Positions 1 through 10,942 are shown, counted from the stretch's first letter. The stretch: DNA of 10,942 nucleotides from a virus (IMGVR_UViG_2778261459_000006); one strand, 5' to 3'. Notes: generated from the letters alone by a model not told the origin. A program made the numbers and translations.

Positions 1-408
1 GAGATTGATATGTTGAAAAACCAGTTAAGCAACAAAATTGATATTGTAGACAAACCGGTTAATCAACAAATCGAGACCAATGGCGACGCTATTGTAGGAG
101 AACCAGTTATGAAGGACTTAAGCAACAAAAGCGATATTGTAGACAAACCAGTTAATCAACAAAAAGCGGGTGGCCGTCCGGCAAAATTCAAAGTAGAACA
201 GCTAGAGCAATGGCTTAAGGAGCAAGGCGGATATAAGGGAACTATCGACGATTTGGCGCTACATGCGTTCGGCAAGGTCGGCAAAGATGGCAAGCTGCAT
301 GGCGCACCAGGCCGCCACTGGATGTACAAGGCGTTAGCTGAACTGGAGAGCGAGGGGAAAATTGCCAAAGAGGCAGCGACAAGGAGCGGGATTAATATTG
401 TTGCTTAA
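1..408 (+). CDS. 3' part of a junction-spanning XRE-type HTH regulator; continues from 10518..10942, full protein about 251 aa if the molecule is circular
   Basis: Frame is open from nt 1 and in phase with the ORF beginning at 10518; stop TAA at 406-408. Contains a 93-nt (31-aa) tandem repeat, LSNK(I/S)DIVDKPVNQQ, starting at 25 and 118. Followed by an intrinsic terminator. Confidence 0.7.
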   Translation, partial: EIDMLKNQLSNKIDIVDKPVNQQIETNGDAIVGEPVMKDLSNKSDIVDKPVNQQKAGGRPAKFKVEQLEQWLKEQGGYKGTIDDLALHAFGKVGKDGKLHGAPGRHWMYKALAELESEGKIAKEAATRSGINIVA

Positions 409-452
409 CCCTTAAAGCCAACGATTAGCTACAAAACAAGCCATCAAGCGAA

Positions 453-477
453 GCCCAGCCATGCGCTGGGTTTTTTG
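453..477 (+). terminator. Rho-independent terminator after the HTH regulator gene
   Basis: Stem CCCAGC (454-459) / GCTGGG (465-470), 5-nt loop, then TTTTTT (471-476). Confidence 0.7.
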
Positions 478-494
478 TTTGCAAAAAGCCGTAG

Positions 495-524
495 TTGTAA
501 GCCACTCAAAAGCAGGTTTACAAT
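495..524 (+). promoter_or_regulatory. Candidate sigma70 promoter for the alpA-like operon
   Basis: TTGTAA (495-500), 18-bp spacer, TACAAT (519-524). TTGTAA and TTACAA form an inverted pair 17 bp apart, a possible operator. Sequence match only. Confidence 0.35.
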
Positions 525-556
525 AGATCCTGTAACAGCAACAGAGGAACAAGAAA

Positions 557-841
557 ATGAACGCAAACATTGAACAGCAAGTCATGACAATGAAAGACGT
601 CTGCAAACTGTTAAACCGCTCAAGAACGTCAGTTTACGTTGCCATGATGCGCTACCAGGATTTTCCGGAGCCTATGTCACGCGGTCACGGTGTGCGAATG
701 GTCTGGTTAAAGTCTGAGTTAATTGCCTGGTACGAGCAGCACAAGGACGAGCTCGAAGAATCACGGAAAAACGGAATGATCCCGAATGAAAAGGCGATGC
801 GGAAACAACAACAAAAAGAGGAAGTAGAAAATGCTAACTGA
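557..841 (+). CDS. AlpA-family (phage AlpA/Xis-like HTH) regulator, 94 aa
   Basis: ATG at 557 with GAGGA 8 nt upstream. The segment MKDVCKLLNRSRTSVYVAMMRYQDFPEP...WLKSELIAWYE fits the AlpA/excisionase-type HTH pattern by eye. Stop TGA overlaps the next start (ATGCTAACTGA). Confidence 0.75.
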   Translation: MNANIEQQVMTMKDVCKLLNRSRTSVYVAMMRYQDFPEPMSRGHGVRMVWLKSELIAWYEQHKDELEESRKNGMIPNEKAMRKQQQKEEVENAN

Positions 842-1841
842 TACGACTTTACTGCCCGGCCTTGATGATCCAGCACCGTGGGATGATTCCGGCGGAGAGC
901 AGAAAGAAAAACGCCCGGGTGGGAAAGACCAGGGCGATGAGATGGAATCTGATAATGACACCGAATCCAATACGAATATTATCGCAGCAGATGACGGAAA
1001 CATCAACGGCAATAGCGGTAAAAATTCGTCTGCCGTTGAGGAAATCAGAGCAACGAAACCAATAGACCACAGCCTATGGGGATTGCGCAGTTCAGCACGC
1101 AAACCAGTAGCGAAAGCAACCACGGAAGAGCCTAAAGACATGTGGGCGGAAATCCTGGAAGAGGAAGAAAACGAGCAAGCCACGCAGAGTAACCCAGCCG
1201 TCAATCAAAGCGATGATCGTGATGAATGGGTGAAAAAGATGAGCGCTCTTTCGAAACAGTTACGCAATAAAAACAGCGACGGTTGGAAACAATACGAAAG
1301 CGTGCCGCCTGTCGGGATTCAGGACGACATAAAGAAATCAGATTCAGGCATTGCAGTACGCGAGGGTAAGGAGTTCCGGCAGCGTGATGATCTGGTCATA
1401 GAATCGCGTGAAATAACGCGGCCAGAAGCGCCAGGAAGCAACGAAACGCATGAGGCTGAACAATCGCAAGGCCAGCAGGAAACAGTAAGCGAGAAGGCTG
1501 ATAAGGACTGGCGCGGCGGCGACTACTACAGCTATACGAGCGAAGGATGCGCGCATCGCGCCTTTGACCGGGCTATCAAGTATAAGAGTGACGATAAGAC
1601 ATACTGGCAGACAAAAGGGATTTTTCTGACCATCGCCAGTGCAGCACGCAGGAACAATGACGGGGAATGGGTGACTAAAATGACCATATCATCACTGACT
1701 GGCGACACTCACGGTAACGCGTCCAGGAAGATCAAGGGTTGGATAGAAAGACTGGAGAAAGCTGGCCTATTAATCCCGCTTGAGACGAGTAAGAGAGACG
1801 GGAGAGCGTGGAAAATGGGATTCACGGTCCATCGAGGTTAA
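831..1841 (+). CDS. Hypothetical 336-aa protein: long acidic low-complexity N-terminal region plus a C-terminal winged-helix-like domain; candidate iteron-binding replication protein
   Basis: ATG at 831 with GAGGAAG upstream, overlapping the alpA-like stop. N-terminal about 230 aa is rich in D/E/N/S/Q; the C-terminal about 100 aa (…GIFLTIASAARRNNDGEWVTKMTISSL…KIKGWIERLEKAGLLIPLE) looks like a DNA-binding winged helix. Sits directly upstream of the terminator and iterons. Function is inferred from position only. Confidence 0.7.
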   Translation: MLTDTTLLPGLDDPAPWDDSGGEQKEKRPGGKDQGDEMESDNDTESNTNIIAADDGNINGNSGKNSSAVEEIRATKPIDHSLWGLRSSARKPVAKATTEEPKDMWAEILEEEENEQATQSNPAVNQSDDRDEWVKKMSALSKQLRNKNSDGWKQYESVPPVGIQDDIKKSDSGIAVREGKEFRQRDDLVIESREITRPEAPGSNETHEAEQSQGQQETVSEKADKDWRGGDYYSYTSEGCAHRAFDRAIKYKSDDKTYWQTKGIFLTIASAARRNNDGEWVTKMTISSLTGDTHGNASRKIKGWIERLEKAGLLIPLETSKRDGRAWKMGFTVHRG

Positions 1842-1853
1842 ATCAGCAGCAAA

Positions 1854-1878
1854 GCCCGCCGCGTTGGCGGGTTTTTTG
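1854..1878 (+). terminator. Rho-independent terminator after the 336-aa gene
   Basis: Stem CCCGCC (1855-1860) / GGCGGG (1866-1871), loop GCGTT, then TTTTTT (1872-1877). Confidence 0.75.
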
Positions 1879-1933
1879 TGCCTGAACCGTAAACCAACCT
1901 ATCTCACTAATGGTTTACATGTGATGCGAAGCC

Positions 1934-1942
1934 TGTGGATAA
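1934..1942 (-). promoter_or_regulatory. DnaA box, perfect TTATCCACA consensus
   Basis: The + strand reads TGTGGATAA, the reverse complement of TTATCCACA. It lies 12 bp upstream of the iteron array. Confidence 0.6.
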
Positions 1943-1953
1943 CTCAAGATGAA

Positions 1954-2084
1954 CCATCAGTTTTGTACCCATATAAAAATCGAACCATCAGTTTTGTACC
2001 CATATACCATCAGTTTTGTACCCATATAACCATCTTTGAACCATCAGTTTTGTACCCATATACCATCAGTTTTGTACCCATATG
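1954..2084. repeat. Iteron array: five direct copies of the 22-bp unit CCATCAGTTTTGTACCCATATA; candidate plasmid-type replication origin
   Basis: Exact copies at 1954-1975, 1985-2006, 2007-2028 and 2041-2062; the copy at 2063-2084 ends in G. A truncated copy (CCATCTTTG) lies at 2030-2038. Flanked by a DnaA box upstream and an AT-rich tract downstream. Confidence 0.9.
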
Positions 2085-2130
2085 ATTCCCTGAGGGCCGC
2101 GCCGCATCTGGACTACGCCGCCCATTAAGA

Positions 2131-2200
2131 GGTTTTAAGAGAAAAAAAGATAAGAGTATTAAGATCAGGATATTTATTTTTCATAGATCTATGATTGGTG
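2131..2200. other. AT-rich tract next to the iterons; possible DNA-unwinding element
   Basis: AT-rich sequence including A7 and T5 runs and GATC sites, immediately after a GC-rich block (2093-2125). Confidence 0.35.
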
Positions 2201-2525
2201 ACCTTCGGAAAATCATCCGGGTATTGCTAGCTTGCTATTGGCCTGGCAGTGGGCCTACGGCTGGGAACTGGAGAACATGAAACGACGTAAGGCACGGAGC
2301 GCCCACCATAGGCAGACACATAAACATCTGAGAGCGCGCCTTCTATCGCGCTACGCGCTCAATAAAAACCAACGACACCGCCATCCTGAAAGACCAATGG
2401 TTTTATCTCGTATACAGACCAGACATGAAACAGCAGGCTGAAGTGAACACTCAAGCAAGTTTATCCCGCCGCAGACTACCGCAAACTATCATGACCGTGC
2501 AGAATTCGAACTGAATGCCCCCTAG

Positions 2526-2635
2526 AACGCGATGAACACACATACCCGCTACGATTGCATACCTTAAAATCTCACCTCACCACAGAGCGATTGAGACGCC
2601 TTAAAATTGATGCGATTTCGCTAAATTTTTTCACT
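2526..2635. repeat. Long imperfect direct repeat, copy A (about 110 bp)
   Basis: Aligns with 2836-2946; shared blocks AACGCGATNAACACACATA and TTAAAATNGATGCGATTTC..TAAATTTTTTCACT. Confidence 0.85.
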
Positions 2636-2674
2636 TGATGCAGAGCTGTATGCGTGAAGGACAGTTGCGTCCGC

Positions 2675-2735
2675 AACTTTCTTGTTCAAAACCCCAGCCA
2701 TCAAGCGTTGAGCCGAAACTTTCTTGTTCAAAACC
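2675..2735. repeat. Two perfect 19-bp direct repeats, AACTTTCTTGTTCAAAACC, 42 bp apart
   Basis: Copies at 2675-2693 and 2717-2735, lying between the two long direct repeats. Confidence 0.85.
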
Positions 2736-2835
2736 TGGCAAGCCTCACAACCTCCAACGGAGGAAGCTGGGTTAATCAGCTTGATTCTGAGCCGATTGCC
2801 AGCCGGACTACTGACCAGATACTGCCAGGCCATTC

Positions 2836-2946
2836 AACGCGATTAACACACATAAGCGCCACACTTACTTACCTGAAAACTTCACAGCGTCACAGCGCGT
2901 TTTAGACACGTTAAAATCGATGCGATTTCATTAAATTTTTTTCACT
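2836..2946. repeat. Long imperfect direct repeat, copy B (about 111 bp)
   Basis: Aligns with 2526-2635, 310 bp downstream of copy A; the 3' end contains the small palindrome AATCGATGCGATT. Confidence 0.85.
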
Positions 2947-3072
2947 CGCCTGAATGGTGGCAATCAGGACTGATTGCAACATTGCCCCGCCTCGATACTG
3001 AGCGCATAATAAATACATACATTAAGCGGAAACGTCATTAACAGATTTGGAAAAAACAATGGGTTAAACATC

Positions 3073-3693
3073 ATGCGCATATCAAAGCAGCAACGCCAAA
3101 TCCTCGACTATCTGGCAGAAAACGAATCAATCACAGCACGCCAGGCGGCAGATCTCGTTTATGGCGGCAACGTTACCCGCGTACAGGTCGATGCAGCCCG
3201 CCGTTCACTGATGGCGCTGGTCAGCAATGGGCTAATCATGAAACAAGGCCGCGCTTTCGTAGCTGAAAGACATATCAATCACGCTTATAGCCAGGACGTT
3301 GAAGAGTTGCGCCGTCAGATCCTTTGGGTATTCAGCAAAGAGGGGCAGGACTATCTCATTTCTGAGCGTCCAAATTACGCCGCCAAAGAGTTAACAGTAA
3401 GCGGATTGTCGTGCGCACTGGATTATCTTGTCGGTGAAGGTTGCGTTACTTACAAGCAGCTATGGCACGCCCTGAACACGCTTGTAGAAGATGGTTTACT
3501 CATTGCCACGCGTGAGAATATCGAATACTGGATAATGCCGCGTTCAGGTCGCCGCAATCATGCGCGGTATATTTCAGGCAACAAATACAGAACGCCTGAC
3601 TTTAATCCGACACAGGAAGATCGGGACCGTGCCGAAATGATGTGCAGGGAACGGGAGAAAAGATTCATGGACAAGTTGTTTTCGATGCGGTGA
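3073..3693 (+). CDS. 206-aa protein with two tandem winged-helix-like domains; candidate DNA-binding regulator or Rep-like protein
   Basis: ATG at 3073, stop TGA at 3691-3693, then a terminator. Segments QRQILDYLAENESITARQAADLV...LVSNGLIMKQGR and LSCALDYLVGEGCVTYKQLWHALNTLVEDGLLIA each look like a winged helix. Confidence 0.7.
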   Translation: MRISKQQRQILDYLAENESITARQAADLVYGGNVTRVQVDAARRSLMALVSNGLIMKQGRAFVAERHINHAYSQDVEELRRQILWVFSKEGQDYLISERPNYAAKELTVSGLSCALDYLVGEGCVTYKQLWHALNTLVEDGLLIATRENIEYWIMPRSGRRNHARYISGNKYRTPDFNPTQEDRDRAEMMCREREKRFMDKLFSMR

Positions 3694-3699
3694 ACACAA

Positions 3700-3722
3700 G
3701 CGGGCGCAATGCCCGTTTTTCT
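3700..3722 (+). terminator. Rho-independent terminator after the 206-aa gene
   Basis: Stem CGGGC (3701-3705) / GCCCG (3711-3715), loop GCAAT, then TTTTT. Confidence 0.7.
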
Positions 3723-3861
3723 TATCTCATTCCACGCCAGACGAACCAATTTAATCACACCTGAGCAAATGCATAGCCAGAACTTAAGGCCGTCAGAATG
3801 CGTTATATTGCGTTTAAACAGCATCAATTTTTAATTGCTTTTTGATGCGTGAATCGCAGGC

Positions 3862-3890
3862 AAAAAAAATCCCGCGAGTAGCGGCGGGAA
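3862..3890 (-). terminator. Candidate Rho-independent terminator on the minus strand
   Basis: On the minus strand a hairpin (TCCCGC / GCGGGA, 8-nt loop) is followed by a T8 run (complement of the A8 at 3862-3869). No minus-strand ORF is evident, so whatever it terminates would be non-coding or antisense. Confidence 0.45.
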
Positions 3891-4000
3891 ATAGAGACAT
3901 ATCGTTGTAGTTATTAATAGATCACATTTTGAGGCTGAGGATTTGCCTCACTAATATTATCGCGCCGTTACCTTTTAGTCGCAATTGATTGTTTGAAAGA

Positions 4001-4025
4001 GGCTGGATGAATCCGGCCTTTTTTT
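4001..4025 (+). terminator. Rho-independent terminator with no upstream ORF; possible 3' end of a small RNA
   Basis: Stem GGCTGGA (4001-4007) / TCCGGCC (4012-4018) with one G-U pair, loop TGAA, then TTTTTTT (4019-4025). A promoter-like TTGAGG-17-TAATAT lies about 50-70 bp upstream. Confidence 0.6.
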
Positions 4026-4162
4026 CTGGTTGGAGAATCAAAAACAGATAAACGCGGATATAAGTGAGCCATAGTTGTAAAAAACAAACAGACGAGCGAA
4101 AATACTAACATCGGTAAGTGAATCACCCACAGAAAACCGATTATCTTTAAGCCTGGATTTTT

Positions 4163-4194
4163 AGCCCGCTGCCTTACTGGTCGCGGGCTTTTTC
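4163..4194 (+). terminator. Terminator-like hairpin immediately upstream of the RBS of the second alpA-like gene; possible attenuator or sRNA 3' end
   Basis: Stem AGCCCGC (4163-4169) / GCGGGCT (4183-4189), 13-nt loop, then TTTTT; GGAG RBS at 4202-4205 and ATG at 4214. Confidence 0.55.
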
Positions 4195-4213
4195 GTTTAC
4201 AGGAGCCTGAAAG

Positions 4214-4393
4214 ATGAAATCCATTACCCTGAAAGAAGTCTGCAATATTGCAGGCGTTACCCCTGAGACGTATCGGCGCTGGTTAAAAGAAAACTTGCCC
4301 GGTATCCCGTTACCATATACCCCGAAAGGGAAACATCTTCGTTTTTATGAGGACGAAGTGGTCGCCTGGATTAAAGGCCAGCGTGAGGGATAA
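4214..4393 (+). CDS. AlpA/Xis-family small HTH protein, 59 aa; absent from the ORF track
   Basis: AGGAG 8 nt upstream of ATG 4214. Translation is MKSITLKEVCNIAGVTPETYRRWLKENLPGIPLPYTPKGKHLRFYEDEVVAWIKGQREG, a paralog-like pattern of the 557..841 protein (LKEVC / MKDVC ... V-W ... W). Confidence 0.7.
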   Translation: MKSITLKEVCNIAGVTPETYRRWLKENLPGIPLPYTPKGKHLRFYEDEVVAWIKGQREG

Positions 4394-4425
4394 AGCAGTT
4401 TTTTATATTAAGAAGGGATTGGTAA

Positions 4426-5001
4426 ATGAGAAATGAAATCAAATATCAACATATCAAGCGTCTGTGGTGTCTAAAAGATGGCGTTATTTTTACGAGATGG
4501 GGCAATAAGCCTGTTTCTTTCTCCTGTAAAGTAAACGGGCGCCGCTATACAACGATTAAAGTTAACGGAAAATGGCACGCAGTTCTTATTTATGAAGCTA
4601 TTTTTATGCTGTTCCATGACCGCCCAATCGCTGAAGGAAAAGAAATCCACCACAAGGACGGCGATCCAGAAAATAACGCAATTGACAATCTTGTCGAGCT
4701 AACCAGAACGCAGCACAAGAGGATTCATCAATATCAGTGCAACGACCCGCTGCGCGGTATTTGCCTGAATCAAGGCGCATGGGAATTTAAATGGTATGAC
4801 GATAACGGAATATGCCGCAGCCGACGTTTCCACAGTATTAACGAGGCAATAAACTTCCGTGCCGAAATAGAAAAACCTCGCAGAAGAGAATTACGATTGC
4901 TAGGCTTGAACTGTCGTAAAAAATATCGCGGAATTACCGCAAGCCAACTACGCAAAATAAGCCGGAAGCAAAATTCTCGCTTATGGCGCACACACATTTA
5001 A
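4426..5001 (+). CDS. HNH endonuclease with an AP2-like DNA-binding domain, 191 aa
   Basis: HNH signature IHHKDGDPENNAIDNLVELTRTQHKRIH, then an AP2-like segment RGICLNQGAWEFKWYDDNGICRSRRFHSINEAINFRAEI. AAGGGA RBS upstream. Confidence 0.85.
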   Translation: MRNEIKYQHIKRLWCLKDGVIFTRWGNKPVSFSCKVNGRRYTTIKVNGKWHAVLIYEAIFMLFHDRPIAEGKEIHHKDGDPENNAIDNLVELTRTQHKRIHQYQCNDPLRGICLNQGAWEFKWYDDNGICRSRRFHSINEAINFRAEIEKPRRRELRLLGLNCRKKYRGITASQLRKISRKQNSRLWRTHI

Positions 5002-5020
5002 ACAACTGGAGATTTTTATC

Positions 5021-5287
5021 ATGTCTACTCATTCATTAGAACGCTTTATGAATATCGCACCGAAATCAGCTGAACAGGAAGCGCGCGAACAATTTCAGCG
5101 AAAACTAGAAGCAGCAGCGCGGCACATTGTCGAGAAGATGCCGGAGCTACTAATCCCGTTGATGGAAGAGCTGGCAGCAGAGCTTCAGAAAGAGATGCCG
5201 CAAGATATGGAAGGGACGGCACTACAACGACTGCAGTTTGAAGCAAGCCGCTTACTACATCTTCCAGTAGGTGCATTTCGTAAATAA
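5021..5287 (+). CDS. Hypothetical protein, 88 aa, predicted helical
   Basis: ATG start with GGAG upstream; tightly packed between the HNH gene and the next ORF. No family recognised. Confidence 0.55.
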   Translation: MSTHSLERFMNIAPKSAEQEAREQFQRKLEAAARHIVEKMPELLIPLMEELAAELQKEMPQDMEGTALQRLQFEASRLLHLPVGAFRK

Positions 5288-5302
5288 CAGGGAGAACGAA
5301 CT

Positions 5303-5998
5303 ATGAGCAAAACACAGGAAAGAATACACGAGCTTGAGGCTAAATATAGCCGCTTGCTGACTGAGCGTGACCATGCAACTGGCGCTGATCGCTATCTTGC
5401 GGAAAAAGAACTGAAAGCTACTCGTAAGATGATCATTAAGTTGCACGGTAAAAGCATTACAGAAGAGATACAGGGCCAAATACCTGACATGGTGAAACAT
5501 GCACTTGCTGGTGTAACTGCCCAGGTAACCGAACTGCGTAAACAAGCTGGCATGAAGGTTAATGCTGACGAAAAGCCGGACGAAACGCCAGACGAAAAGC
5601 CGCGTGATGAGCGTATCGCTGAGGCTTTGCATGTGGTTAAGAGCAATCTGCTTAACATGGAAATTGATGACCTCATCGACCTTCGGGATCGTGTCCTCAA
5701 GGCGGTTGAAAGTCGTAACCAGGCAGCAGAGCAAAACAAGCTGGCAGACATGACGGTTAACGCGAACCACGTCGGAGCACCGGACGCCGCCAGTTACTTT
5801 GACCCTAATCTGCCGAAAGAGATAGCTGACTACCTCGATCCGCCGTTGCCGCCAGAAATTGAAGCGCATTTCGCCGAAACGAAAACGGTCGCAGGGGTTG
5901 ACCTGGATTCATACTTTCAGGGCAACAATGAAGCGGCAGGGATTGATTTAGACGAATATTTCCTGCCAAGCAAGCACTACAGCGTAAGTAAAGACTGA
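5303..5998 (+). CDS. Hypothetical protein, 231 aa, with acidic C-terminal repeats
   Basis: GGGAGA RBS 7 nt upstream of the ATG. Short repeats DEKPDETPDEKP and DLD(S/E)YF / YFDPNLP / YLDPPLP. Followed by a terminator. No family recognised. Confidence 0.7.
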   Translation: MSKTQERIHELEAKYSRLLTERDHATGADRYLAEKELKATRKMIIKLHGKSITEEIQGQIPDMVKHALAGVTAQVTELRKQAGMKVNADEKPDETPDEKPRDERIAEALHVVKSNLLNMEIDDLIDLRDRVLKAVESRNQAAEQNKLADMTVNANHVGAPDAASYFDPNLPKEIADYLDPPLPPEIEAHFAETKTVAGVDLDSYFQGNNEAAGIDLDEYFLPSKHYSVSKD

Positions 5999-6005
5999 GC
6001 AAACA

Positions 6006-6026
6006 GGGGCCGCAGCGCCCCTTTTC
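6006..6026 (+). terminator. Rho-independent terminator after the 231-aa gene
   Basis: Stem GGGGC / GCCCC with a 6-nt loop, followed by TTTT. Confidence 0.6.
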
Positions 6027-6045
6027 ACTTTCTGGAGATGAGATC

Positions 6046-6324
6046 ATGTCAACGTCAATTACACTTCGGATCTGTATGGGTATGGCACGCGTTATCACGA
6101 AAGAGGTCACAGATATTAAGCACAGCAGCCGGGAGCTACCATTGCGCCGCCAGCAGTTGCGGATTTTCGCCAGTTACGTTTTTGGCACGTTCGCATCACT
6201 GAAGCGCAAATTGAATGGCGGGCCGGTCAGCAATGAAGAAGCGAATTTTTTAAAAAGACTCACGATGATAGAAAAAGACCTGCACACGCAGTTAGAAAGT
6301 ATCAAGGCAGACGTAGGCGAGTAA
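6046..6324 (+). CDS. Hypothetical protein, 92 aa
   Basis: ATG at 6046 with GGAG 9 nt upstream; stop TAA at 6322-6324. No family recognised. Confidence 0.5.
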   Translation: MSTSITLRICMGMARVITKEVTDIKHSSRELPLRRQQLRIFASYVFGTFASLKRKLNGGPVSNEEANFLKRLTMIEKDLHTQLESIKADVGE

Positions 6325-6375
6325 GTTAGCGAGGTGTTAGCGAACGATAGCGGGTAGTTAGCGAACGATAACGGG
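6325..6375. repeat. Tandem direct repeats of GTTAGCGA; two extended 19-bp copies, GTTAGCGAACGATA(G/A)CGGG, at 21-bp period
   Basis: Copies at 6325-6332, 6336-6354 and 6357-6375, intergenic, immediately upstream of the tail module. Confidence 0.8.
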
Positions 6376-6458
6376 CCGTTTTTTGAAGTTAGTTTTCAAT
6401 GCTAAAACCGCCGAAATCCGCGCCATACGGGTTTTTGCACTATATGAGGGGCGCTTTT

Positions 6459-6722
6459 ATGGGGGTAATTTTCGGACAAGTACTATGCGCGCGCGAGGCA
6501 ATCATGAAGCAAGACATAGCGGAAAGGCTGGAGATACTCGAAAACCAGCGAGAAGAAGCCAGACAGATGCGCAGGGAGGCAAATAAAGAGGGCCGGAAAA
6601 AAGATGCATGGCATCTGAGACAATTCATCAACTTTACAAACCGTTGCATCCAGGAGTGCTACATGGAAGACGCAGAAAACTGGCTGGATTCCTTGCCAGA
6701 AAAGCACGGAACAGAGCGATGA
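6459..6722 (+). CDS. Hypothetical protein, 87 aa from the RBS-supported ATG at 6459 (the ORF track starts it at 6399; 6504 is another possible start)
   Basis: GAGGGG 7 nt upstream of ATG 6459. The protein is charged and helical (…IAERLEILENQREEARQMRREANKEGRKK…). Stop TGA at 6720-6722, in the same frame as the next ORF. Confidence 0.45.
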   Translation: MGVIFGQVLCAREAIMKQDIAERLEILENQREEARQMRREANKEGRKKDAWHLRQFINFTNRCIQECYMEDAENWLDSLPEKHGTER

Positions 6723-6743
6723 TTGTTAGACGAAGGGGGTTAC

Positions 6744-7184
6744 ATGCCGATGAGACACCAGGCTGTCATTGAGCAGATCAAGCGGCAGCTAAGGGAAGAA
6801 ATCAAAGAGATTAGCAAGGACGCGGCGACAGCCGCATATGAGATCGCTATCACTGCCGAAGGCTATGCGGTAGCAGATACACCGAGAGACACGGGCACAC
6901 TTATAAACGGCTATTACATCAATATTGACGAAAATCCTGATGGTGCGCACGCCACTTTAGGTAATACGGAACGCTATGCGTATTGGGTTCATGAAATGCC
7001 GGGGATACTGAAAGGTCAACCGCGCGAACATTTCGGGAAGACAAGGGAAGGCGTTGCCTTTGGTGGCGGTACTGAAAAGGGTTGCTATTGGGATCCTGAT
7101 GCAAGGCCCAAATTCCTTGAGCTTGCGCTCGATGAGCATTACGACGAGTTTATGGATATAGCACGCAAATATTTAAAGCGATGA
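6744..7184 (+). CDS. HK97 gp10-like protein (tail completion / head-tail joining family), about 146 aa
   Basis: Motifs PRDTGTL, YAYWVHE and ARPKFLELAL fit the HK97 gp10-like pattern as I recall it. The ORF-track start at 6723 is a TTG; the ATG at 6744 follows a GAAGGGGG RBS. Confidence 0.6.
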   Translation: MPMRHQAVIEQIKRQLREEIKEISKDAATAAYEIAITAEGYAVADTPRDTGTLINGYYINIDENPDGAHATLGNTERYAYWVHEMPGILKGQPREHFGKTREGVAFGGGTEKGCYWDPDARPKFLELALDEHYDEFMDIARKYLKR

Positions 7185-7193
7185 GGTGAGATC

Positions 7194-9374
7194 ATGGGTG
7201 AACAGGTCGGAAGCCTTCAGATAGATATTGACCTGAAGACAAAAAATTTATTGGTAAGCCAAAACCAGGCTGAAAACGCGCTTGATAATATTGGCAATAA
7301 AATCAGCGGTGTGGAACGCAAAACAAAGACCTTTAACACGCAGTTAACTAAAACATCTGCCGCAGTCAAAAGCAGCCTTTCCCCGGCAATTCGCAACGCA
7401 TCGTTTCAGATCGCGGATTTAGCTACCCAATTGCAGATGGGCGGTAATGCTCTGGCGGCATTTGCCGTTCAGGGCGCACAGTTATTAGCTGGCTTTGGCA
7501 CGATGGGCGCGGTAGCTGGCGCGGTGCTGGCTATAGCTGGCGCTATGGGTGGAAGCCTGGCACAAGGCGCTGATAGTGCAGCCGGATCGGTTGAGTACCT
7601 GGACAAGGCGATCACCAAACTGAACGAGGTCATAGCTGTAAATGAGCAGGGCGTGACGGTGATGACTGATAGTTACGCCAATCTTTCTAAGGTTAACGCT
7701 GAAGTAGCGAAACAGATGCGGAACATGGCTGAAATTCAGGCAATTGCAGCACTGCGTGACCTGAAAGAACAGGCAAGCCAGGCACAGGGGGAAATGTCAT
7801 CATTCTGGCGTAGCTTGCAGGGCGGTAAAGCTGACGCAGCAGCAGCAGCACAGGCACTTGATGACCTGGGAATCACGACCAACGACTATAAAGAAGCGAT
7901 CGCCACACTTAACGCCAATCAGCCGGATACACAGGCGCAGATGGCGACGCTGGCTAAATCCGTGATGTATGTTGGCGAAGAATACGATCTGACCAATCAG
8001 CAAGCCTACGAATTCATCCGGGCGCTGAATAAGGCCGCGACAACGAAAACACCGGAAGCAATGCAGGAGCTATCTGGCTTCATGCAGGTATTGCTACAGG
8101 ACACAGAAAACGGTAACGAGGCATTCAGGGAACTGGCTATCAAATTCGTTGATGCACAAACCAAAGGCGCAATGCTGGAAGACCAACTAAACCGACTGAA
8201 AGGCGCTATCAGTGACGCAGCCACAGAAGCCAGAAACGCCAATTTTACCACTATGCTCAACACCGTCGCCGCACGCCTGGCAGCCATTGAGCAAGGTTGG
8301 GAGGCAGGTGTCAGGATGCAGATGAAAGCCCAGGGCTACACTGAAGAGCAGATCGATGAATATGTGAACATGGAAACGGCGTACAGGGATGCAAAAGCCG
8401 CTTTGGACGAGAAGAACAAGGCCGACCGTGAAGCAATTGCGCTATCCAAACGCCAGGCCGCAGAAGCCGCCCGCAAGGCAAAACAGGAAGAAGCTGAAGC
8501 ACAACGCAAGGCCAAACAGTTAGCGGCGCAGAAAGAACAGGCCGGACGCTTTACGCAGCAGGTGATGACGGAATATCAAACGACCGTGGATCCGGCAACA
8601 GGCCAGGCGTTGAACCCTGCCGCACAAGTGGAAATGCAGGAGCAGCAGAAGAAAACGGCATTAGATAAATACAGGCAGTTGGGTGTTTTGGGTGAGCAGG
8701 AGTATCAGAACACGCTAACAGCCATCCAGAAAACTGCATCAATGCGCCGCCAGCAAATCATCAAAGACGAGGCTGACACGTTATTCAACAATCAGCAGCA
8801 GTTGATCGGCACATTTGGCGATTTCTTCGGTGAACTGTCTGGAGTCATAGCAGACGGCGCGGGTGAGCAAAATGCGGCATATCAAGCGCTATTTGCTGTG
8901 CAGAAGGGGTTTGTATTGGCGTCGGCAGCTTTAAGCCTTCAAAAAGCGCTGGCAGAGGCAAACGCCTTACCTTTCCCGGCTAACCTTCCGGCCTATGCGC
9001 AAGCGATGTCAGCAGGTACGCAGATCATTTCAGCTATTCGTGGAATAGCTTTCGGTGGCGGACGCTACAACGGCGGCGCGGTTGGTGCTGGCAACCTGTA
9101 CCGCGTGGGTGAACACGGTAAGCCTGAGATATTCAAGGCGAACAATGGCAGCCAGTACATGATCCCAGGTGATAACGGTCGCGTGATAAGTAATCGTGAC
9201 ATTGGCGGCGGTGGCGGCGTAACAATCAACAGCCCGATCACCATTAACACTACGAATGGCTTCAGTGATGAAGACTCAAGGCGTCTTGAGGAAGCGATGA
9301 AGCGCGTAGCTATGGGCGTTTGCAGGCAGGAGTCAACCAGACCGGGAGGAATGTTAGCCCCGCGCCGCCGTTAA
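7194..9374 (+). CDS. Phage tail tape measure protein, lambda gpH-like, 726 aa
   Basis: N-terminus MGEQVGSLQIDIDLK, then a Gly/Ala-rich hydrophobic segment (…AAFAVQGAQLLAGFGTMGAVAGAVLAIAGAMGG…), a K/A/E/Q-rich helical region and a glycine-rich C-terminus with GNLYRVGEHGKPEIF. This resembles lambda-H-family proteins by eye. Confidence 0.8.
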   Translation: MGEQVGSLQIDIDLKTKNLLVSQNQAENALDNIGNKISGVERKTKTFNTQLTKTSAAVKSSLSPAIRNASFQIADLATQLQMGGNALAAFAVQGAQLLAGFGTMGAVAGAVLAIAGAMGGSLAQGADSAAGSVEYLDKAITKLNEVIAVNEQGVTVMTDSYANLSKVNAEVAKQMRNMAEIQAIAALRDLKEQASQAQGEMSSFWRSLQGGKADAAAAAQALDDLGITTNDYKEAIATLNANQPDTQAQMATLAKSVMYVGEEYDLTNQQAYEFIRALNKAATTKTPEAMQELSGFMQVLLQDTENGNEAFRELAIKFVDAQTKGAMLEDQLNRLKGAISDAATEARNANFTTMLNTVAARLAAIEQGWEAGVRMQMKAQGYTEEQIDEYVNMETAYRDAKAALDEKNKADREAIALSKRQAAEAARKAKQEEAEAQRKAKQLAAQKEQAGRFTQQVMTEYQTTVDPATGQALNPAAQVEMQEQQKKTALDKYRQLGVLGEQEYQNTLTAIQKTASMRRQQIIKDEADTLFNNQQQLIGTFGDFFGELSGVIADGAGEQNAAYQALFAVQKGFVLASAALSLQKALAEANALPFPANLPAYAQAMSAGTQIISAIRGIAFGGGRYNGGAVGAGNLYRVGEHGKPEIFKANNGSQYMIPGDNGRVISNRDIGGGGGVTINSPITINTTNGFSDEDSRRLEEAMKRVAMGVCRQESTRPGGMLAPRRR

Positions 9375-9636
9375 CCAACTCCCACGCCAGGGGGATAGAC
9401 TGGCGGACCCTTCACGCTCCTACGCAAAAATTCCCTCACAATCGCCCTGTCAATTTTTCAGATTTCACCAGAACGCGCCTGAAACAGCCTTCCCACATCC
9501 TTGATATTCCGTACGCCCTGCTAAAAGCGTGATCTGCGACAAAAATTGTACTTTTTGCCGTTGATTCGGGGTCTGTATGGGAATAATCTCACAATCAAAG
9601 AGAGGTAAGGGTATTTGGGAAATGGAGGAAAGTATC

Positions 9637-10263
9637 ATGGCTAACGCAGCTTATATTCGTGTTTCTACTATCGCTCAGGATACATTGCGCCAACGCGAGG
9701 CTATCGCTAACACTGGCATGAAGTTTGAGAAAATCGTTGAAGAGAAAAGGTCAGGTAAAGACCTCGATCGCCCGGCACTGCGGGAGCTATGCGGCTGGTT
9801 ACGTGAAGGTGACGACCTGTACGTCGCATCAATTGACCGCCTGGGGCGCAAACTGACTGATGTAATGGGCGTGGTTGATGAACTGCGGCAGAAAGGGGTT
9901 CGGGTCCACTTTCTGAAAGAAGGGCAGATCATCGGTGGCGAGATGAACGCGGTTCAGGAGTTCTTTATTCAGCTCATGGCAGCAGCCGCGCAGATGGAAC
10001 GTAGCTTTATGCTTGAACGCCAGAAAGAGGCGAACGAAGCCAGGAGGGCGGCAGGGAAACCGGTTGGGCGTGGGCTGGCACCGAAGATTAAGCAGCAGCT
10101 GCCGTACATCCTCAAGGACATGGAACAACGCAAGGAGTCCATGAGCGACCTTTGCCGCAAATACAAAGTGGCGCGAAGCACAATGTACCGGATCCGCGAC
10201 AACGCCATTCGTGACGGGAAGCTGCCGGAAATTGTGAAGGTCAAAAAGGTCGTCATCAACTAA
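9637..10263 (+). CDS. Small serine recombinase (resolvase/invertase family), 208 aa
   Basis: N-terminal catalytic pattern AYIRVSTIAQ...SGKDLDRPALREL...GDDLYVASIDRLGRKL...GVRVHFL and a C-terminal HTH (ARSTMYRIR). GGAGGA 7 nt upstream of ATG 9637; the ORF-track start at 9577 is probably too far upstream. Confidence 0.9.
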   Translation: MANAAYIRVSTIAQDTLRQREAIANTGMKFEKIVEEKRSGKDLDRPALRELCGWLREGDDLYVASIDRLGRKLTDVMGVVDELRQKGVRVHFLKEGQIIGGEMNAVQEFFIQLMAAAAQMERSFMLERQKEANEARRAAGKPVGRGLAPKIKQQLPYILKDMEQRKESMSDLCRKYKVARSTMYRIRDNAIRDGKLPEIVKVKKVVIN

Positions 10264-10276
10264 CCCACCAAAACAA

Positions 10277-10313
10277 AGGGGACTCAGCAATATCACCGAG
10301 TCCCCTTTTTCTT
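10277..10313 (+). terminator. Rho-independent terminator after the recombinase gene
   Basis: Stem AGGGGACTC (10277-10285) / GAGTCCCCT (10298-10306), 12-nt loop, then TTTTT. Confidence 0.8.
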
Positions 10314-10365
10314 TCTCACAATCCCCGCTGACATTATAACCGCCATTCCCTGGTTTTATCATTTG

Positions 10366-10517
10366 TTGACCAGCCTGCTATTTGTAGACAAATCCAATCA
10401 CATCTAAATCATCAACCAATAAATTGACCTAAATCATTTTATCAGTCGCTTAACCAGGTGTATTTTGTAGTCAAACAAGGCTTGACAAGGTTTAGCGACA
10501 AATTAAAGGGGTGAACA
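10366..10517 (+). promoter_or_regulatory. Promoter/operator region of the HTH regulator gene
   Basis: TTGAC(C/A) occurs three times at exact 58-bp spacing (10366, 10424, 10482). The motif TTGTAGACAA (10382-10391) and its variant TTGTAGTCAA (10466-10475) also recur inside the downstream coding repeats. GGGG RBS 5-6 nt before ATG 10518. No convincing -10 element. Confidence 0.4.
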
Positions 10518-10942
10518 ATGTATCAGCCAATGACTTTACCGGATCTGCTATTTGCCGCCGCCGACCGCGCGGGCTATGTCAACAGTAGCGGCAAACTGAA
10601 ACGCAAGGGGTTAGCTGATGCTCTCGGTATCGGTGAGCAGGCGCTTAACAGCTACATGAAAGGTAGCCGGGATGTTAGCACAGAACAACTAAATAACATG
10701 CTGACATTGCTTGGCGTGTACGGCATCGCACCATTCAAGGGCAATCAATGGATGGCGCTGGACGTGGATTATAAAGCGCGTAGCGACGAGATTGTCAGTA
10801 ACAAGATGATTGCGCTGGAACGCGATAACCAGCAAAAGGCACAGCAGATCGCAGCACTGAAAGCTGAGATTGATATGTTGAAAAACCAGTTAAGCAACAA
10901 AATTGATATTGTAGACAAACCGGTTAATCAACAAATCGAGAC
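10518..10942 (+). CDS. 5' part of the junction-spanning XRE-type HTH regulator (continues at 1..408)
   Basis: ATG at 10518; the N-terminus has an HTH pattern (GLADALGIGEQALNSYMKGSRDVSTEQL) followed by a coiled-coil-like segment. The frame runs off the window end and is in phase with 1..408. Confidence 0.7.
   Translation, partial: MYQPMTLPDLLFAAADRAGYVNSSGKLKRKGLADALGIGEQALNSYMKGSRDVSTEQLNNMLTLLGVYGIAPFKGNQWMALDVDYKARSDEIVSNKMIALERDNQQKAQQIAALKAEIDMLKNQLSNKIDIVDKPVNQQIE
10866..10942. repeat. Terminal 77-nt exact duplicate of nt 1-77; circular-contig overlap
   Basis: Direct comparison shows 77 of 77 identical, ending exactly at the window edge. Confidence 0.85.

Follow-up and report, generated by a model that had tools for sequence, protein, structure and literature searches.

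A circular Escherichia coli plasmid of 10,865 bp, most likely a phage-satellite-like element in its plasmid state

Introduction

The described system that seems closest in lifestyle to the element reported here is the satellite P4 in its plasmid state, an Escherichia coli element of about 11 kb that is capable of existing as a plasmid and encodes a small helix-turn-helix (HTH) protein of the AlpA/Vis type. Our subject is the virus-assigned contig IMGVR_UViG_2778261459_000006, a stretch of 10,942 nucleotides that we call the window throughout, and which we read as a complete, circular E. coli plasmid of 10,865 bp, most likely a phage-satellite-like element in the plasmid state; we place the probability of this reading at roughly 0.78. 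The window resembles P4 in having no capsid, tail tube or lysis genes, so that dependence on a helper would be expected. Unlike P4, it has no detectable alpha primase-helicase, sid, psu, delta, epsilon or integrase gene, it replicates by a different system, it carries genes for a tape measure protein (TMP) and a neck protein that P4 does not have, and its candidate helpers are siphoviruses rather than P2.

A second comparison is offered by the phage-inducible chromosomal islands (PICIs) of Gram-negative bacteria, such as EcCICFT073, which share with the window a length of about 10-15 kb, the order alpA, rep and iteron origin, the placement of all genes on one strand and a selection of morphogenesis and packaging genes (HNH endonuclease, head-tail connector and, in relatives of the window, a small-terminase-like gene). 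The window differs from them in having neither an integrase with its attachment site nor an initiator of the Pri-Rep (primase) type, and in carrying a TMP; PICIs are also stated to have no plasmid state (PMC6092414). Capsid-forming PICIs have capsid, portal and protease genes of their own, none of which was detected in the window with Pfam or PHROGs. TMPs were described as essentially unknown in satellites in a preprint of December 2025 (PMC12822802). The EPIP satellites of Mycolicibacterium are reported to encode a TMP, but they are unrelated to the window in host and sequence, they possess a serine integrase together with capsid and scaffold genes, and no plasmid replicon has been described for them (PMC12822802).

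As a replicon, the window is built like the iteron theta plasmids (pSC101, R6K, F, P1) and the lambdoid origins (lambda O/ori): an initiator gene lies beside tandem 22-bp iterons, a DnaA box and an AT-rich stretch, the winged-helix initiator co-varies with the iterons, and a serine recombinase is at hand that could resolve multimers. It departs from the iteron plasmids in that half of its candidate initiator is predicted to be disordered, with one winged helix seen against the two of RepA/pi-type proteins and no place in a curated Rep family, and in that an AlpA-like gene is coupled to rep and no partition genes were found. Its cargo has counterparts elsewhere. The eutA/eutB locus is the site of the cryptic prophage CPZ-55 in E. 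coli K-12 (PMC6379469), and the fuller elements at that locus share the window's morphogenesis module, junction regulator and conserved non-coding block; they are integrated with intZ, whereas the window has an AlpA-Rep-origin module in place of int/att and a serine recombinase in addition. The CPZ-55 of K-12 itself, which lacks the TMP gene, resembles the window only faintly. What is new is the joining of an uncurated iteron replicon to a CPZ-55-type, TMP-bearing, satellite-like module, the circular-replicon part being ordinary. In the literature we found no paper describing an E. coli satellite with a TMP, linking CPZ-55 to satellites, or describing this plasmid family.

Closure of the circle

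The features that bear on closure are as follows.

1-77: first copy of the terminal overlap, identical to 10866-10942, attributed to closure of a circle by assembler k-mer
10866-10942: second copy of the terminal overlap, identical to 1-77
10518-10942, plus strand: 5' part of the junction gene, encoding a 251-amino-acid (aa) XRE-type HTH and coiled-coil regulator, a candidate repressor
1-408, plus strand: 3' part of the junction gene, with two imperfect repeats encoding LSNKxDIVDKPVNQQ
450-474, plus strand: terminator-like hairpin 3' of the junction gene

An initial annotation, made from the sequence, had noted that the ends of the window are identical over 77 nt and that one open reading frame (ORF) continues in frame across the junction, and had proposed a 10,865-bp circle assembled with a k-mer overlap. 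Each of these statements is borne out. The match of 1-77 to 10866-10942 is exact, a search of the whole window places its first 30 nt at the two ends and nowhere else, and an exact 77-mer repeat within 10.9 kb is not attributable to chance. In draft assembly GCA_002485715.1 the window makes up contig NNVN01000081.1 from end to end, and its proteins are filed under Escherichia coli in NCBI. Seventy-seven is a standard top k-mer in short-read assemblers, and an unbranched cycle is emitted with ends that overlap by k. Removal of one copy gives a circle of 10,865 bp in which a single ORF of 251 aa runs from 10518 to 408 through the junction, and its product has an N-terminal XRE-type HTH followed by a coiled-coil region. 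An 800-nt probe centred on the junction aligned without a break to four other sequences, these being the relatives L001 (94.6%), L010 and L011 (both 92.7%) and L002 (88.7%); in L001 and L010/L011 the homologous gene is contiguous and encodes 252 aa.

A false closure, in which a repeat in the HTH gene or a chromosomal tandem duplication mimics the ends of a circle and the contig is a linear slice, has in its favour that the ends fall within a region of imperfect 34- and 93-nt repeats, and that the 55-nt overlap of another contig, L105, would delete the origin, so that overlaps can mislead. However, the 93-nt-spaced repeat has its internal copy at 94-170, which agrees with 1-77 at only 69% identity and therefore cannot yield an exact 77-mer. 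The closed gene is as long as its contiguous homologs and aligns to them unbroken, which leaves no hidden third repeat unit of the kind that the initial annotation had envisaged as another source of the identity. The contig is furthermore a complete replicon without chromosomal genes, and it belongs to a family of the same unit size whose members are circularly permuted. Taken with this evidence, false closure is extremely improbable. The repeats themselves (4-170 and 10869-10935) comprise imperfect 34-nt and 93-nt units that duplicate the LSNKxDIVDKPVNQQ motif, and the chromosomal relative L002 has 48 nt fewer in this region, so that repeat number is variable.

The relative contigs that we fetched are conserved in gene order and differ in the gene with which they start, and in three pairs (L010/L011, L008/L009 and L018/L019) one member is a circular permutation of the other at 100% identity. 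The last pair, recovered from two separate metagenome samples, ends in overlaps of 99 nt (L018) and 55 nt (L019) that lie at different places; as overlap length differs between identical relatives, it is set by the assembler and does not reflect a fixed terminal repeat of biological origin. Overlaps of 111 nt in L016 and 30 nt in L010 were also seen, while a 29-nt overlap in L013 was not counted, as it falls inside the iterons of that contig. This variation bears directly on the possibility that the window is linear virion DNA, terminally redundant or circularly permuted, with the 77 nt as a true direct terminal repeat. Virion-type genes are indeed present, and a protein of one relative was deposited under 'MAG TPA: Bacteriophage sp.' (DAW21186.1), yet the overlap equals a common assembler k, varies among relatives as described, and lies inside a coding gene on an element that has a plasmid-type origin and a resolvase-type recombinase. 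We judge this explanation to be very improbable.

L105 (MTYF01000091.1, 5753 nt) was rejected as a circular relative, since closure at its 55-nt overlap removes the iterons and DnaA box and alters the C-terminus of Rep; either its closure is false or the contig is a deletion derivative that does not replicate. The case of L105 shows that an overlap alone is no proof, and in the window closure is backed by the restored gene. A circular molecule of 10,865 bp, its ends duplicated by assembler k-mer overlap, is accordingly the reading that comparison of the sequences supports. Closure is routine in itself, but it sets the context for the whole element.

The candidate replication module

Because the circle closes at 10.9 kb, all of its maintenance functions must lie within that length. 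The candidates for replication are arranged in one block.

557-841, plus strand: AlpA/excisionase-like HTH_17 protein, 94 aa, its gene overlapping the start of rep
831-1841, plus strand: candidate replication initiator (Rep), 336 aa, with an N-terminal half mostly predicted to be disordered, a small beta domain and a C-terminal winged helix
1854-1878, plus strand: GC-rich hairpin and T-run after rep, terminator-like as read from the sequence
1934-1942, minus strand: perfect DnaA box TTATCCACA, the sole copy in the window
1953-2083, plus strand: iteron array of five exact 22-bp copies of ACCATCAGTTTTGTACCCATAT and a partial copy
2084-2200: GC-rich block and then an AT-rich stretch with GATC sites, the candidate unwinding region of oriV

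Five exact copies of the 22-mer compare with an expectation of 0 by chance, and GC content is 0.385-0.39 across 1900-2199. Relatives have iteron arrays at the same place after their rep homolog, and a DnaA box follows rep in nine of ten. When relatives are compared with the window, the iteron sequence tracks the identity of the C-terminal 100 aa of Rep and not that of the N-terminus: L004, with 68% identity at the N-terminus and 96% at the C-terminus, has the same iterons; L010, with 90% and 22% respectively, has different ones; and L005, L008 and L106, with C-termini 74-82% identical, have only one iteron half in common with the window. From this anatomy and co-variation we infer that the 336-aa protein is the replication initiator and that 1934-2200 is oriV. 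The winged helix at the C-terminus of Rep would bind the five or six iterons just downstream of its gene, and Rep, together with host DnaA at the adjacent box, would then open the AT-rich stretch and begin replication of the theta type; the AlpA-like protein would be co-transcribed with Rep.

The AlpA-like gene lies upstream of rep in every Rep-bearing relative; its product scores 29.3 bits against HTH_17 (cut-off 27), and its match to Phage_AlpA is below threshold. Disorder is predicted for most of the N-terminal half of Rep, and searches detected neither a primase nor a helicase domain in the protein. HTH_36 matches 15 of 30 Rep homologs, RP-C weakly matches four, and there is a weak similarity to RepA_N; the structure model has a predicted local distance difference test score (pLDDT) of 70-84 over residues 237-332 and a mean of 52. 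Cumulative GC skew was considered as an indicator of the origin and was uninformative, being dominated by the single coding strand.

Viewed across relatives (831-1841 in the window; L004-L018 and L106), Rep is modular, combining a conserved and largely disordered N-terminal half with interchangeable winged-helix C-termini that each have their own iterons. To judge from the sequences, this looks like swapping of a domain along with its site, and it probably defines incompatibility types.

Serine recombinase and extrachromosomal state

9637-10263, plus strand: small serine recombinase of the resolvase/invertase family, 208 aa, with catalytic motif YIRVST
10275-10308: strong hairpin terminator after the recombinase gene

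The recombinase matches PF00239 at 1.2e-31 and, weakly at its C-terminus, HTH_7. Deposited 8-kb E. coli plasmids carry the recombinase module (9415-10338) at 91% identity, and conservation includes the region upstream of the gene (9415-9636). The corresponding protein cluster has 101 members, and nearly every contig listed for them measures about 10 kb or is shorter, the lone exception being an 84-aa fragment on a 16.6-kb contig. Its most likely role would be the resolution of plasmid multimers. No tyrosine or large serine integrase was found in the window with Pfam, PHROGs or NCBIfam, and without an integrase the element would stay extrachromosomal.

The distribution of Rep points the same way. 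Almost all of its 63 homolog clusters derive from gut metagenomes or isolates of E. coli; the longest contig measures 10.2-12.4 kb in 24 of these clusters and exceeds 13.4 kb in none. In contrast, the 206-aa protein that the window has in common with chromosomal elements occurs on contigs of up to 6 Mb. Sensitive blastn found no match to the AlpA-Rep-origin module in 5,426 complete E. coli genomes, and Rep has no relatives among 185,579 species-representative genomes. This module is the only one common to a series of circles of about 7-12 kb whose cargo otherwise differs (L106 of 7.4 kb, L012 of 8 kb and the set of 10-12 kb). L017, a 13.4-kb metagenome contig containing the full L018 element, was considered as evidence of integration and rejected: its flanks (1-1144 and 11673-13237) encode an N-terminal fragment of RNase Y and a Lon-N/IspD fusion ORF, and because these foreign fragments have no E. 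coli match, L017 is probably a chimeric assembly and not an integration site.

The circle might alternatively be the excised or replicating form of a chromosomal integrative element, comparable to an induced PICI or prophage. Related modules do lie at eutA/eutB beside intZ in about 260 E. coli genomes, and satellites circularise on induction (PMC6092414). However, the element has no integrase of either type, its AlpA-Rep-origin module sits at the int/att position, the Rep module is never chromosomal in the complete genomes searched, and the contig closes inside a gene and not at an att site, as would be expected from an unbranched cycle in the assembly graph. An excised form is very improbable on these grounds. 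A resident plasmid is favoured by the origin, the want of an integrase, the never-chromosomal Rep module and the limit of 13.4 kb on Rep-bearing contigs. Where the initial annotation had allowed for either an autonomous or an excised element, the former is thus preferred, and a circle of 10,865 bp with a Rep/iteron/DnaA-box origin and a small serine recombinase, kept outside the chromosome, is strongly supported.

The 8-kb E. coli plasmids of L012 type (NZ_CP062859.1; also NZ_CP062904.1) have a serine recombinase 97% identical in aa to that of the window, a distant Rep C-terminus (28%), five iterons of their own (CCATGTCCCACCACACACCACC), a DnaA box and no TMP. The chromosome of the L012 host strain also bears a relative at the eut locus.

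Tail, neck and packaging genes

The cargo genes lie between the origin and the recombinase.

3073-3693, plus strand: 206-aa protein, common to the chromosomal eut-locus elements
4214-4393, plus strand: HTH_17 protein of 59 aa, first in the morphogenesis/packaging operon
4426-5001, plus strand: HNH endonuclease, 191 aa (PF13392)
5021-6722, plus strand: four ORFs without assigned function, of 88, 231, 92 and 107 aa
6723-7184, plus strand: HK97 gp10-like neck/tail-completion protein, 153 aa, 47% identical to mEp013 gp81
7194-9374, plus strand: TMP homolog, 726 aa

The TMP matches phrog_1538 at 3e-100. In tblastn comparisons it is 31-35% identical to annotated phage TMPs over about 60% of its length, and it reaches 53-58% over nearly the full length against temperate siphophages of about 48 kb in IMG/VR and CobraSix-like prophages of E. 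coli. Similarity to the TMPs of the mEp phages is greatest at the C-terminus, where the last 93 aa are 63-72% identical to those of the E. coli mEp021 group (72% for mEp013). The C-terminus of a TMP is the end that engages the tail-tip complex. In complete phages 4.5-5 kb separates the neck gene from the TMP gene, and this interval holds the tail tube and chaperone genes; in the window the two are adjacent, and the TMP gene has the neck gene on one side and the recombinase on the other, instead of tail chaperone and tail-tip genes. Neither Pfam nor PHROGs revealed capsid, portal, large terminase, tail tube, tail tip or lysis genes. The window is thus an 11-kb element with a full-length and constrained TMP gene and no tail tube, chaperone or tip genes.

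The 107-aa ORF occupies the position at which relatives have an Sf6-type small-terminase-like gene in their morphogenesis module. ORFs without assigned function were scanned for defence functions with PADLOC, which returned nothing credible. In three relatives (L010 at 7427-7930, L011 at 2309-2812 and L013 at 3216-3716) the morphogenesis module includes a cyclophilin-type prolyl isomerase. DNA injection by phage HK97 requires a periplasmic prolyl isomerase chaperone together with the HK97 TMP, and by analogy the isomerase of the relatives may be linked to TMP function.

Integrated relatives at eutA/eutB

About 36% of the window aligns, at about 90% identity, to elements in some 260 E. coli chromosomes. 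Two of these, L001 and L002, were examined, and in both the element lies between eutB and eutA, beside intZ. Identity to the window is 87-93% aa for the TMP and 86-94% aa for the junction regulator; the non-coding block is also common to them, and the 206-aa protein (81% aa) is found in L001 only. The AlpA-Rep-origin module of the window takes the place of the int/att ends of these chromosomal relatives, and the window has neither the eutA/eutB insertion context nor intZ, both of which are present in L001, L002 and K-12.

In CPZ-55 of K-12 MG1655 (L103, 2558691-2565480) the 3' flank of the TMP gene is kept (about 78% over 100 nt) and the gene itself is gone. YffS of CPZ-55 weakly resembles the junction regulator of the window, and YffM, likewise weakly, its 92-aa protein. 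In sequence, CPZ-55 looks like a deletion remnant of the fuller elements at the eut locus.

Non-coding features

3862-3984, minus strand: candidate antisense small RNA (sRNA) of about 90 nt (3950 to 3862), with promoter TTGCGA-17-GATAAT and a hairpin+T8 terminator
2526-2941: two direct copies of a 106-nt sequence, 78% identical (2526-2631 and 2836-2941), and between them a pair of 23-nt repeats (2671-2693; 2713-2735), all in a long non-coding part after the origin

The block that contains the candidate sRNA (3740-3985) is conserved throughout the 11 aligned relatives, plasmid and chromosomal alike, and more strongly than most genes are. The RNA itself would have a 5' hairpin and an invariant single-stranded core of about 25 nt, GTGATCT.TTAA.AACTACAAC, and it is antisense to the leader of the operon that runs from the 59-aa HTH protein through HNH to the TMP. 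A single compensatory pair was seen, and scanning the entire window against Rfam (E<=1) gave no match. Between the block and the start of the operon (4214) there are two terminator-like hairpins with T-runs on the plus strand (4001-4030 and 4163-4195). Hairpins ahead of the operon suggest that its transcription is controlled by termination or antitermination, possibly in response to a helper phage.

Further upstream, nt 2746-2836 have a counterpart, at 92% identity, in an unannotated part of CP057168.1, a 9-kb E. coli plasmid.

Satellite or passive cargo

In proposing that this plasmid is also a satellite, we depend on its gene content, that is, on the presence of neck, TMP and HNH genes and the absence of capsid, portal, large terminase, tail tube and lysis genes. 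A helper temperate siphovirus, of the mEp021 or CobraSix-like group, would supply the virion; the element would add its own TMP and neck protein to the assembly of the helper's tail, and probably a packaging specificity, and its DNA would be packaged and transferred. That the cargo makes the element a phage satellite using a helper siphovirus is, in our estimation from sequence, about an even chance.

The main rival to this step is that the window is an ordinary small cryptic plasmid bearing a passive fragment of a defective prophage, a CPZ-55-like module, with no helper-dependent transfer. Several features of the element would fit such an origin: it is a mosaic of which only about 36% aligns at about 90% to any chromosomal relative, its recombinase module comes from 8-kb plasmids, the relatives L106, L105 and L012 keep the AlpA-Rep-origin backbone without a TMP, and neither a packaging site nor a helper has been identified. 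Yet the TMP is intact and under purifying selection (the ratio of nonsynonymous to synonymous substitution, dN/dS, is 0.16-0.18), and seven elements, some plasmid and some chromosomal, all encode it at a constant 726-727 aa; the same subset of virion genes (neck, TMP and HNH, with a small-terminase-like gene in relatives) recurs in many independent elements; and a conserved regulatory block precedes the operon. A passive cargo is for these reasons the less probable of the two explanations, and we consider it unlikely, although much less so than the alternatives to a resident circular plasmid weighed above.

A number of observations weigh against reading the window as a plasmid-state satellite and must be set beside those that favour it. 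With regard to the replicon, closure of the 10,865-bp circle rests on assembly logic and comparison. Rep has no match above threshold to curated initiator families in Pfam, NCBIfam or PHROGs and no relatives in IMG/VR; its structural model is of low confidence, and its PDB profile and fold matches are to generic winged helices, with no significant E-value in the fold search, so that no Rep family could be assigned to it. No partition or toxin-antitoxin genes were found in the element, and neither PLSDB nor the complete E. coli genomes contain a closed plasmid with this Rep family, save for one 8-kb cousin at 28% identity. With regard to the cargo, no helper, packaging site or induction signal has been identified, and comparison of the non-coding regions within 2090-4220 with all phages, in search of a shared cos or pac site, gave no DNA match. 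The TMP search in IMG/VR returned only distant homologs, mostly on phage contigs of 40-55 kb, and the HNH protein is of the HNH_3 type that is common among homing endonucleases. The relatives with the same backbone and no TMP (L106, L105 and L012) indicate that the plasmid can do without its tail genes.

Implications

The cargo of the window is of more interest than its closure, given that TMPs are reported to be essentially absent from known satellites (PMC12822802), that PICIs are stated to have no plasmid state (PMC6092414) and that CPZ-55 has been an unexplained 'cryptic prophage' for decades. Plasmids of this kind, of about 11 kb, are missing from curated plasmid and complete-genome collections. 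Were the satellite reading true, CPZ-55 would gain an identity, and E. coli would have a second lineage of plasmid-capable satellites.

More tentatively, and at somewhat less than even odds, we suggest that E. coli phage satellites include a hitherto undescribed family with two forms: an integrated one at eutA/eutB, of which CPZ-55 would be a decayed member, and a free one, an iteron plasmid of about 11 kb. Such a family would parasitise temperate siphoviruses through its own TMP and neck proteins, perhaps under the control of the conserved antisense sRNA. If so, it would represent a plasmid-state satellite outside the P4 family, and one that re-tools the tail of its helper rather than the capsid. 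With mEp phages that infect K-12 as candidate helpers, the satellite reading, if true, would also provide a tractable system for the study of how a parasite makes use of tail assembly or DNA injection.

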